Positions 15,001 through 18,000 of a stretch of 64,000 nucleotides of DNA are shown piece by piece. The first letter of the stretch is position 1, and each line of letters opens with the position of its first letter. This DNA is from Waddliaceae bacterium (GTDB lineage Bacteria; Chlamydiota; Chlamydiia; Chlamydiales; Waddliaceae): the NCBI GenBank assembly GCA_963822595.1, contig CAWGIG010000001.1:1-64000 (forward strand), read 5' to 3'. Position numbers: made by a program.

Positions 15001-18000
15001 CAATCTCTGTATAGGTTCGTTGAGAATGCCAATATAAAGTACAAAAGTAAGTAAATCGGCTAGATTCAAGGACCCTTTTACAATGCTAACTCCCCCAAAA
15101 ATGACTACAGCAACAGTCATGAGTTGTGTTAACATGATCAATCCCTCATAAAAATACATCTCGCTTTTATAACCAAATTTTCTGCTGTCAACAAACCGAT
15201 TGTTTTCGTTAGCAAACTTTGCCTTTTCAATGGGTTCGTTAGTAAATGACTTTACAACGCGAATGCCTGAAAGGGTATCTTCGACTTGCGCGTTGATATC
15301 GCCAATTCTATCTTTGCTTTTCCTTAAAGCAATCTTCATTTTCTTGTTTGTCAAATATCCATACAAAACCATAAGCGGAACAAAAAGAATGACGATCAGA
15401 GCAAGCTTAACATTGATATTAATCAAAATGATGGCTCGCTCCGATGAAATTCAGCGAGGAAAGGACGATATCTTCAGGGCCATGATGATATAATTCTGAA
15501 AGATCGAAGGAATCGTTTGTGATCCGAGTCATGAGCTGACCCGTTCTATGTTCATCATAGAAGTTGAATGATAGTTTTTGATAATGATCAAATAATTCAC
15601 GGCGCATATCCGCTTCCATCAGCGCCCCCATGACATGCCCCTGATAGCCAACAAACGCGCTGCATGCTGTATGGAGAGCAACTATCGCAAGCATGACGCC
15701 CCCCATAATATAGATTTGACTGAGAGTATCCGGCGTATCGGTTGCTAATAAGTTTTGAGTGATATAGCGAATGCATAAGGGAATCGCTAGTATACTTACA
15801 GAAACCATAAGAGCGCATGCCATGTCAGCACAAAAAAGCCCCTTGTAGGGCCTGTAATACGACAGAAATTTCTTCATTCGTGGATTCATAAAAAACCTTT
15901 TATTATTTAAGTTAAGACTATAACAAAAAGGTCCATAAACTACATCAAATGTTTCATTTTTGGGAAATCACTTCTGTATAAATAGAGTTCTGAAGCGTTT
16001 ATTGAGGAGTTCAACATATTTTTTTTGATAAGTTATCGATAGGAAGCTTTTATTGATAAGCAAAATCCATTCGGGATAAATTTTTTGAATATTATCCAAT
16101 TCGCGTTGAATGGTGACTGAGTTAAGTTTTAAGCGTTCTTGGCCATAGTAATCAATGAGATGTTCTCTTTTAAGATTGCTTTTCTTTCCCTTTATTGGGA
16201 GAGCGAGTTCCTCATCATTTTCTAAGACAATGTTCGAATTCACAAGATCATAGGCTGGCGTTAATTCTATTTTCATAGGACGGCGAATGAGTGAAAAATT
16301 CTTGAGGTGCATATCATCATTACCGACTAAAAAACAAAAAAGTGTAATCCTGAAAAGTTTAAGTTTCTCCAAAATTGGGAAGGAGCAATATGTGTCAATG
16401 ATAGGAATCAGCTTTTCCATGCTACTGTCATATTTGGTTTTTCTGGATGCGTTTGAAAGTTGTGCAAAGTCTTCAATGGGTAATTTTTTTGCATGACCAT
16501 AGCGATCAAATCTTTTGATAAAGTAACTTAAAGTACCATCCTCACCGTATACCATCCCATGGACAGGCGTTTCTATTCCGATCATGGAGGCCAGTCGCAT
16601 AGTTAGGTCTTCATTTTGAGGGAGTTCACTAAAATAGGGATGGGGGGGTTTAAGGATATATGTTCCTTTTGAATCCACCACTTCAAAACAGTGTTTAGGA
16701 ACGTTAAGTCTGACGCTTAATTTAGGTTGTACCCCTTGAATGGAAAGCTTTGTCGCATATTTCGCTGCCAAAGAAAGTTGTTCCTGTGCTGTGTAAGGAA
16801 AAATAAAGGGCTCATCAAGACTTTTGGCAAGTAATTTTAGCCCCTGCGGAGAATATTTATTCTGCCCACATTCTTCGTAAGTAATCGGACAGCGATTCAT
16901 TCAAAAGCCTCTACAGTAACATTTCCAACCAGATCGTGGCCAACCGCAATGAGTTGCTGTAATAGATCATCTGCATCTATTTTTGCTCCCTTCAATAAGG
17001 CTTCCAGTTGCATTCCTTCAGGAAGCAGTCCATCAAAAAAAGGTGGAAAGGTTGCATATTCGAAAGTTTTCTCGCTTACAGGCATCAAAAGGGAGACAGG
17101 CTCTCCATGATAATTCTCGTCATATGTAAAGTTGTATTTGGTTCCTCTGATTTGTTCTTCCAGTATCTAGAGTATTGACCATTCACAAAAATTTTTGCTT
17201 TTTTCATTTGAAATACTCTTCCATATAAGGGCTTTTGAACTCTATGGTGATATTAAGAACTTCCAAAATATGCTGTAAGGTACTTAGCTTGACAGATATT
17301 TTTCCGTGCTCCACATCATAAATAAATGTCTTGCCAACTCCAGCAAGCTTAGCTAGTTCATCGCGTGACAACCCACTTTTTTCCCGATGGAATAAAATGA
17401 TTTTCCCTAATTCAGGAAGAATGTTATTCATAATTTTTTCCCGTTATTACAGTAAAATATTACATAAAAGCATTTAAATCGACAAAAATCTTTATAATTG
17501 TGCTTTTCTTACTGTTAAAGCAGTAAAATACGGTGAAAAACTACTTTTTTTGTAAAAAACCTTTCCTTTACGTTAATTTTTACCTATATAGCAGTAAAAC
17601 TACATCAAATATTCCATTTGTTTTAACCAAATTGCCATATGATGAATAAGGATACCTTCAGGATACTTTAGAATATCTGCTGATTCTATTTGATCATATG
17701 TTAGCTTTTTCGATAGCAACATATTACTGATTGCTTTCGCAGCTTCTTCTCGAAAATAAGAATCTGCATTGGTTAATTGATGTAAAAGATATTCTAAAAC
17801 AGATGAACATTGTTTTTCACTGAGATGAGGAACCAATGCCGACAAGATACTAGCCGCACCATACACCCCTCTTTCAATGGATGATAATTCAGAAATGTGC
17901 AAGAAAATTTTTTCTGCATTTTCAGAAGATAGTCGTGGGGCAATTTCAGTAAGAATATAGCAAGGGTTCTGAGTTTTTATTATACGAGGTAAAATAGAGT

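Follow-up and report, generated by a model that had tools for sequence, protein, structure and literature searches.

Does a bacterium live with an intact kinase toxin and a broken antitoxin, or did the break arise when its genome was assembled? The question is raised by a toxin-antitoxin (TA) locus in a metagenome-assembled genome (MAG) of an uncultured member of the Chlamydiota, Waddliaceae bacterium (GenBank assembly GCA_963822595.1). The stretch that was analysed, referred to here as the window, comprises positions 1 to 64,000 of contig CAWGIG010000001.1. On its minus strand, at 15968-17431, lie the co-oriented genes hipB, hipS and hipT, in that order. Together they make up a canonical tripartite HipBST cassette, a toxin-antitoxin system of the HipBST(Lp) subclade. 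In the assembly, hipS has lost one base. This loss is probably an error of the assembly, which we infer to be a Nanopore-only long-read metagenome assembly. Because the lesion most likely has this origin, the module is probably intact and functional in the organism.

Gene content and kinship of the module

The module was identified by searches of PDB, Pfam and NCBIfam (TIGR) and by DNA and protein alignments against relatives. The first gene of the operon, hipB (17204-17431), encodes a helix-turn-helix (HTH) regulator of 75 amino acids (aa). It matches Pfam HTH_3 (1.7e-10) and TIGR03070 couple_hipB (2.9e-16; 59.1 bits, under the curated cut-off of 71.65). Its best PDB match is HipB of Legionella pneumophila (8ezt, 1.6e-19), and it is 87% identical to HipB of an intact metagenomic module (L078). 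The last gene, hipT (15968-16900), encodes an intact 310-aa protein that is predicted to be a Ser/Thr kinase toxin with a HipA core (Pfam HipA_C, 1.3e-43) and without N-subdomain 1. Its best PDB match is HipT(Lp) (8EZR/7VKB; 8ezr_B, 2e-97 over residues 1-306); the matches to HipT of Escherichia coli O127 (3e-23) and to the HipA chains of E. coli K-12 (3tpd_A and related, about 1e-5 to 1e-6) are weaker. The middle gene, hipS, yields a protein of 103 aa once one base is added at 17166-17168. This repaired HipS covers positions 2-98/99 of the Couple_hipA profile (5.5e-19) and matches TIGR03071 (1.9e-21). Its best PDB match is HipS(Lp) (7vkb_B, 6.4e-31), compared with 4.5e-10 for the O127 HipS. 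Adjacent genes overlap by the four nucleotides ATGA, hipB and hipS at 17204-17207 and hipS and hipT at 16897-16900.

To which branch of the HipBST family does the module belong? Sequence comparison places it in the subclade of L. pneumophila HipBST(Lp) (lpg2368-lpg2369-lpg2370; PDB 7VKB, 8EZR, 8EZS, 8EZT; PMC9325769, PMC10653801) and not in that of E. coli O127. HipBST(Lp) has the same gene order and 4-nt overlaps, and it provides the best PDB matches for all three proteins. The sizes are also close, 75, 103 and 310 aa in the window against 72 aa for HipB(Lp), 102 aa for HipS(Lp) and 312 residues for the solved HipT(Lp) chain. The P-loop carries a single serine in both, as SIQ in the window and as SVQ or SIQ in Legionella (PMC10653801). 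Residues I65/M66 of HipS(Lp) align with M66/Q67 of the window HipS, and neither protein has a Trp there. HipBST(Ec) of enteropathogenic E. coli O127:H6 (PDB 7AB3-7AB5; PMC10627512) shares the tripartite layout, with HipS as the antitoxin and HipT as a HipA-core kinase, the roles assigned to the window proteins as well. However, its double-serine (SxS) motif, S57-I-S59, and its inhibitory HipS residue Trp65 are both absent from the window, where HipS has M66/Q67 at the place of the Trp. The O127 toxin targets TrpS, and the Lp-type toxin reportedly has a different target. HipBA of E. coli K-12 has a homologous kinase core, and its single HipA corresponds to HipS and HipT together. However, HipBA consists of two genes, its antitoxin is HipB, and N-subdomain 1 is fused to the kinase.

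The original prediction, made from the DNA alone, had proposed a HipB-like HTH protein of 75 aa, a HipS resembling the N-terminal subdomain of HipA, a 310-aa HipA-core kinase lacking that subdomain, and 4-nt overlaps joining all three genes. Each of these features was found as described, that of HipS once one base is added. It had also likened the split HipB/HipS/HipT arrangement to that of E. coli O127; the arrangement holds, but the closer counterpart is the L. pneumophila system.

The module also differs from HipBST(Lp). By global alignment with Legionella sequences taken from the printed PDB-search alignments, HipT is only 53% and HipS only 57% identical. The host is a chlamydia and not Legionella, symmetry is highest in the middle operator rather than in the promoter-proximal one, the assembled hipS is interrupted, and the cassette is bracketed by a 23-nt direct repeat. 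Closer relatives are found in metagenomes. The closest intact metagenomic modules (L078 and L079) encode proteins of exactly 75, 103 and 310 aa with 4-nt overlaps, and HipT is 76% identical to that of L078, against 52.6% for HipT(Lp). In a scan of a genome collection with HipT, relatives were at most 55% identical and came mostly from Bacteroidota. HipBST-type proteins are already labelled in database entries for Chlamydiota MAGs, and homologues of HipBST-Lp are widespread outside the Gammaproteobacteria (Lin et al.).

The kinship extends to the region upstream of hipB. A 23-nt operator-like element is present there in three copies on the minus strand, at 17435-17457 (TTTTACTGTAATAACGGGAAAAA), 17506-17528 (TTTTACTGCTTTAACAGTAAGAA) and 17577-17599 (TTTTACTGCTATATAGGTAAAAA), spaced at exactly 71 bp from start to start. 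Relative to the hipB ATG, their conserved TTACTG is at -24, -95 and -166, so that the first of these HipBST(Lp)-like repeats stands 24 nt upstream of the gene. The second copy contains an inverted repeat, TTACTG-N6-CAGTAA, and the third abuts the stop codon of an upstream gene that encodes a 745-aa protein. The same 71-bp spacing is found in a module from a sister MAG (L075; -22 and -93) and in L078 (-23 and -94). In 28 Legionella species, an 18-nt operator lies 24 nt upstream of hipB and is accompanied by two further operators separated by 53-bp gaps (Lin et al., PMC10653801). An 18-nt operator and a 53-bp gap add up to a 71-bp period, equal to that of the window. Given this shared spacing, the module has in common with the Legionella clade the architecture of its promoter as well as its proteins, with the repeats as putative binding sites for HipB.

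Is the toxin itself intact? HipT was aligned with 18 relatives (Legionella, two close metagenomic modules and 15 genome loci), and columns conserved at 90% or more were scored. HipT keeps 71 of the 72 conserved columns, and the lone exception is the conservative change L109I. Both features by which the earlier reading proposed to judge the kinase are present, namely a Gly-rich loop (LSIQGVQPK), which forms the single-serine P-loop LS53IQGVQPK60 with G56, and a catalytic Asp, D196, in the motif GNDD196MH198LK200N201. The Mg2+-binding residue D218 is present as well (YD218L). D196 and D218 correspond to D197 and D219 of the L. pneumophila protein, and mutation of either abolishes its kinase activity and toxicity. 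The residues D132, R133, E143, R153, K156 and K200 correspond to D133, R134, E144, R154, K157 and K201 of HipT(Lp), whose mutation abolishes or weakens the binding of HipS. An identical HipT is encoded by a Logan contig (L074) of sequencing run ERR11523676.

How would such a module work? For L. pneumophila and E. coli O127, it is known that HipT owes its toxicity to its kinase activity and that HipS, not HipB, neutralises it. HipS is the sole neutraliser of HipT, and HipB alone gives no rescue. By homology to lpg2368-70, HipB dimers would bind the three evenly spaced operators and repress the operon, and HipT would be a HipA-core Ser/Thr kinase whose activity arrests growth. HipS would be the detached N-subdomain 1 of HipA, and it would bind HipT and neutralise it by displacing the P-loop from the active site. 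The ATGA overlaps would couple the translation of the three genes. These functions are carried over from homologues, and the gene content, conserved motifs, operator-like repeats and lesion were read directly from the window.

The one-base lesion in hipS

As assembled, hipS contains no intact ORF (open reading frame). The frame of its ATG, starting from 17207, reads MKKAKIFVNGQYS-R, then departs from the HipS frame and ends at a TGA (17085-17087), giving a 40-aa ORF. The rest of the HipS homology, ILEEQIRGTKYNFTYDENYHG...VEAFE (ILEEQIRGTKYNFTYDENYHGEPVSLLMPV...VEAFE), is found in the -1 frame and runs to the stop codon at 16897-16899. Alignment with homologues assigns codons 1-13 (MKKAKIFVNGQYS) and the AG of codon 14 to a 5' part at 17167-17207. 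Codons 15-103 and the stop codon form a 3' part at 16897-17166, recognised by the match of the repaired protein to 7vkb_B and by its conserved columns. Between the two parts, DNA alignments locate a one-base gap at 17166-17168 in the codon for an invariant glycine, Gly14. The "+1 correction near 17160-17170" proposed in the original prediction is therefore confirmed as one base missing at 17166-17168. Only from 17166 onwards is the -1 frame open, since a TAG at 17167-17169, created by the one-base gap itself, blocks it further upstream. To translate across the lesion, a ribosome would have to shift by -1.

The N-terminus of homologous HipS proteins reads MKKAKIFVDGxxAG, and the first 13 residues of the window protein align with all of them. 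Glycine is invariant at position 14 (116 of 116 homologues, 98-112 aa long), and position 13 is Ala in 110 of the 116 and Ser in the window. Across codons 13-15 the window reads TCT AG- ATA, and three relatives read GCT GGC ATT, GCT GGG GTT and GCT GGG ATC. At 17163-17171 the state of the window is TCTAGATAC, and the alternative state is TCTGGNATAC. HipS keeps 41 of 43 conserved columns, and the exceptions are codons 13 and 14. Because all 41 other conserved columns are kept, the lesion must be either very young or not real. The closest HipS in a collection of 5.8 billion proteins is 83% identical, and no intact HipS with 90% or more identity is present in that collection.

The 3' part has its own possible starts. 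The first canonical ones are a TTG at 17086-17088 and an ATG at 17083-17085. The latter is the codon of the conserved Met42, and it overlaps the TGA of the 40-aa ORF as TGATG (17083-17087). From this ATG the annotation of the source genome predicts a 62-aa protein (P0050, 100% identical). The 62-aa fragment holds 10 of the 12 residues by which HipS(Lp) contacts HipT, which map to residues 57-95.

Assembly error or gene decay

Evidence for an assembly error comes from other genes of the window. Its first 17 kb contain six further single-base lesions in four conserved genes, and all six are +1 insertions. An ABC exporter gene (14150-15889, minus strand) is divided into four ORFs by three insertions outside homopolymers (~15436, 14893 and 14818). 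A POT transporter gene (6870-8316, plus strand) has one extra A in an A6 run at 7865-7870, a PepA aminopeptidase gene (8416-9751, plus strand) has one in an A7 run at 8712-8718, and a gene for a Band_7/SPFH protein (2806-4180, minus strand) has one in an A5 run at 3844-3848. In Pfam profile coordinates, the fragments of each broken gene are consecutive parts of one domain, and when one base is removed at each lesion, all four genes become single full-length ORFs whose domain matches are continuous. The repaired ABC exporter has 578 aa, a length shared by more of the 120 listed homologues than any other. No recognised gene of the window is broken by a nonsense codon.

A similar picture is seen in the sister MAG, which appears to come from the same study as the window. 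Its contig L075 is 356 kb long and has a Flye-style name, and its DNA is also present in a Logan contig of run ERR11523662, which is 14 accession numbers from ERR11523676, the run with the organism of the window. In L075 the dnaK gene (13500-15481), part of an hrcA-grpE-dnaK operon, contains at least 8 frame changes. For most of the gene, its fragments share 75-85% identity with Chlamydia DnaK, and the identity falls to 33-55% in the C-terminal part and one short piece; the Chlamydia probe served only to locate the frames. In an essential gene, frame changes of this kind have the look of consensus errors. Over 10.5 kb, L075 and the Logan contig L076 differ only once, by A5 versus A6 in glgP, a difference typical of Nanopore data. 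The one large study linked to this style of naming polished Nanopore-only Flye assemblies with a single round of Medaka, and the window may come from it. The hipBST module of L075 has intact hipB and hipS genes; its broken gene is hipT (8309-9234) and not hipS, with two one-base insertions, one in the P-loop (CAA[G]CCA) and one in a T7 run. Elsewhere in L075, at 1995-2810, upstream of a 6-phosphogluconate dehydrogenase gene, there are four tandem 43-aa ORFs with a 228-bp period and a 30-nt element repeated at the same period.

A further argument concerns hipS itself. Since HipS is the only neutraliser of HipT, a state in which the antitoxin is null and the toxin intact should be counter-selected. 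Whether the lesions of this region are in general real is close to an even question. It is the expected lethality of the antitoxin-null state that tips the balance for hipS towards an artefact. The original prediction had reasoned that, if the frameshift was genuine, the toxin could be unchecked or the module inactive; as an assembly artefact is the likelier origin, this conditional reading probably does not apply.

However, a number of observations weigh against an assembly error. The membership of the window in the Microflora Danica long-read data is one that we infer, and so is the sequencing platform. The hipS site is not a homopolymer, and its lesion is a deletion with neighbouring substitutions, whereas the other six are insertions. 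All seven lesions lie at 3.8-17.2 kb; none was recognised in the other 46 kb, which has intact ORFs of 692-898 aa. A model of uniform random errors was rejected because of this clustering, which it would produce with a chance of (14.4/64)^7 ~ 3e-5. Some of the lesions are reproduced in Logan k-mer assemblies. The Logan contig L084 (ERR11523676) is 100% identical to the window over 2643-4351, including the A5 frameshift of the Band_7 gene, and both hipT insertions of the sister MAG recur in L076. These lesions are therefore in the reads and were not created by polishing. In addition, a truly truncated paralogue of a HEAT-repeat protein at 4282-5103 shows that genes do decay nearby, and the repaired ABC exporter is off consensus at 8 of 323 highly conserved columns (median 3), which gives a weak hint of relaxed constraint; 12% of homologues deviate equally or more.

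In second assemblies, no contig that reaches the hipS site was found. The Logan contig L074 ends at 17128, 37 nt short of the lesion. Over 1322 nt it differs from the window by one mismatch, in the start codon of the ABC exporter at 15889 (ATG in the window and GTG in L074), a sign that strains in the population vary. Searches for exact matches to HipB, to the 40-aa ORF and to the 62-aa fragment returned no further contigs, and a degenerate DNA pattern across the hipS site had no match in the JGI (Joint Genome Institute) metagenomes.

Could two alleles of a single-nucleotide polymorphism (SNP), set side by side during consensus-building, account for the insertions? This idea agrees with AAG[A]CAT, at which 58 homologous sequences carry H and 51 carry N, and with GTT[G]CAA in the L075 dnaK. 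It fails for the insertions that are reproduced in k-mer assemblies, and as an explanation of the lesions it is partial.

A less likely alternative is that the frameshift is genuine and recent, and that the lineage is accumulating pseudogenes. In hipS, a substitution in Gly14 may have come first and the one-base deletion second. Several of the observations that speak against an assembly error also speak for this alternative: every lesion covered by a second assembly recurs, the lesions are confined to a few genes while many long ORFs are intact, the HEAT paralogue is a case of real decay, and the repaired ABC exporter deviates more than is usual. Decaying or split hipBST loci are also documented. 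In lpg2377-80 of L. pneumophila and in hipBST of L. gormanii, both of the HipBST-Lp type, hipS, hipT or both are fragmented into several ORFs, which the authors interpret as decay or divergence, and expression was not toxic (PMC10653801). However, hipT is split in both of these loci (in lpg2377-80 hipS is too), whereas in the window hipS alone is broken and hipT looks fully functional. The loss of an antitoxin before its toxin is a disfavoured order of TA decay, and HipT shows no sign of inactivation and has kept its HipS-binding residues.

The nature of the lesions also speaks against real decay. Bacterial pseudogenes usually show a deletion bias, and six insertions among seven lesions run counter to it. 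All recognised lesions are single-base indels, and the genes that they break are of a conserved, core type, whereas the lineage-specific genes are all intact. How would the cell survive a genuine frameshift? One possibility is that HipB still represses the operon, and another is that HipT is harmless at its native level in this host. A third is that re-initiation at UGAUG (17083-17087) yields the 62-aa HipS fragment, which could retain the helical bundle and most of the HipT-contact residues, 10 of the 12 being inside it. However, the fragment is without the N-terminal beta-strands, and its folding is purely hypothetical.

One form of this alternative, a real frameshift in a cell that has an intact HipT but no full-length antitoxin, appears unlikely. 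It could come about if a "mini-HipS" of 62 aa, made by termination-reinitiation at UGAUG, sufficed against HipT, or if the kinase had been freed for another use in an obligate intracellular chlamydia, for example on the host. The latter idea parallels a claim once made for Lpg2370. It is most improbable that full-length HipS is made by programmed recoding (-1 ribosomal frameshifting or transcriptional slippage) as a way to regulate the level of antitoxin: a -1 shift would restore the frame and there are A6, A5 and T5 runs at codons 2-7, its only support, but recoding is in practice excluded because the TAG at 17167-17169 closes the -1 frame immediately before codon 15, so that any shift must occur at TCT-AGA-T, a site that lacks the X XXY YYZ form of a slippery heptamer, slippage at the upstream A/T runs would meet stops, all 116 homologues compared (98-112 aa) are single ORFs, and the lone hairpin found in a scan, a weak, terminator-like one of 5 bp (17092-17106), is ~60 nt downstream of the site and too far from it to act as a frameshift stimulator.

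Genomic setting and significance

By its gene sequences, the host is an uncultured member of the Chlamydiota related to the Parachlamydiaceae. The named relatives of a MurF-Alr fusion in the window are Chlamydiota, and the ABC exporter is 77-84% identical to its homologues, of which three are named Parachlamydiaceae and two are Parachlamydia sp. The window also encodes a eukaryote-like kinase and many ORFs without family matches. This gene content, with F-box/HEAT paralogues, the kinase and orphan ORFs, is typical of an amoeba-associated chlamydia.

The cassette has recognisable borders. A 23-nt direct repeat is present at 15937-15959 downstream and at 17597-17619 upstream, and the two copies (21/23 identical) are 1660 bp apart and enclose the whole cassette with its operators. 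The 14-mer core of the repeat is present twice in the window, where 0.06 occurrences would be expected. The upstream copy shares sequence with the 745-aa F-box/HEAT gene, namely its stop codon and last codons. Because this repeat brackets the cassette and looks like a target duplication, it suggests that the cassette was inserted as a whole, operators included. The context of related modules is unrelated to this one; L078 and L079 have a HepT/MNT pair and a transposase beside the module, and L075 has rseP.

The neighbouring HEAT-repeat family, of ~750 aa, consists of eukaryote-like proteins typical of amoeba-associated bacteria. Its full-length paralogues are encoded at 17600-19837, 19818-22217 and 35561-37783, and the truncated copy at 4282-5103 is a C-terminal remnant of 273 aa (all on the minus strand). 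Only at the N-terminus of the 745-aa member is there an F-box match, a borderline one of 20.2 bits (cut-off 20.5). Two other proteins are candidate polymorphic toxins or effectors, one of 898 aa (25820-28516, minus strand) with a C-terminal colicin-E3-like "Cytotoxic" domain (8.9e-28) and one of 357 aa (24229-25302, minus strand) with a Tae4 amidase effector domain, whose gene adjoins a GNAT gene. A second candidate TA pair, at 38811-39350 and 39347-39754 (minus strand), has a 4-nt overlap and consists of a 135-aa ORF without family matches and a 179-aa protein with HTH_3 and a "dnstrm_HI1420" antidote domain. Three sets of paralogues without family matches are likewise on the minus strand: three tandem proteins of ~300 aa that are 41-52% identical (32113-34912), two of ~390 aa that are 74% identical (10190-11362 and 11727-12917), and a pair of 470 and 205 aa that is 49% identical (48808-50848).

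What does the locus mean for the HipBST family? Modules of the HipBST-Lp type are known to be widespread beyond Legionella, and that of the window conforms to them down to the spacing of its operators, so that the locus carries little biological weight. It does carry a warning. Single-base frameshifts cluster in conserved genes of this assembly, and therefore a broken antitoxin beside an intact toxin should not be taken as biology until the reads have been inspected. Two points go beyond the routine. One is the 71-bp operator layout outside Legionella, in chlamydial and metagenomic relatives. The other is the lesion in the antitoxin gene, which, if the frameshift were real, would represent an unusual antitoxin-first decay of a kinase TA system.

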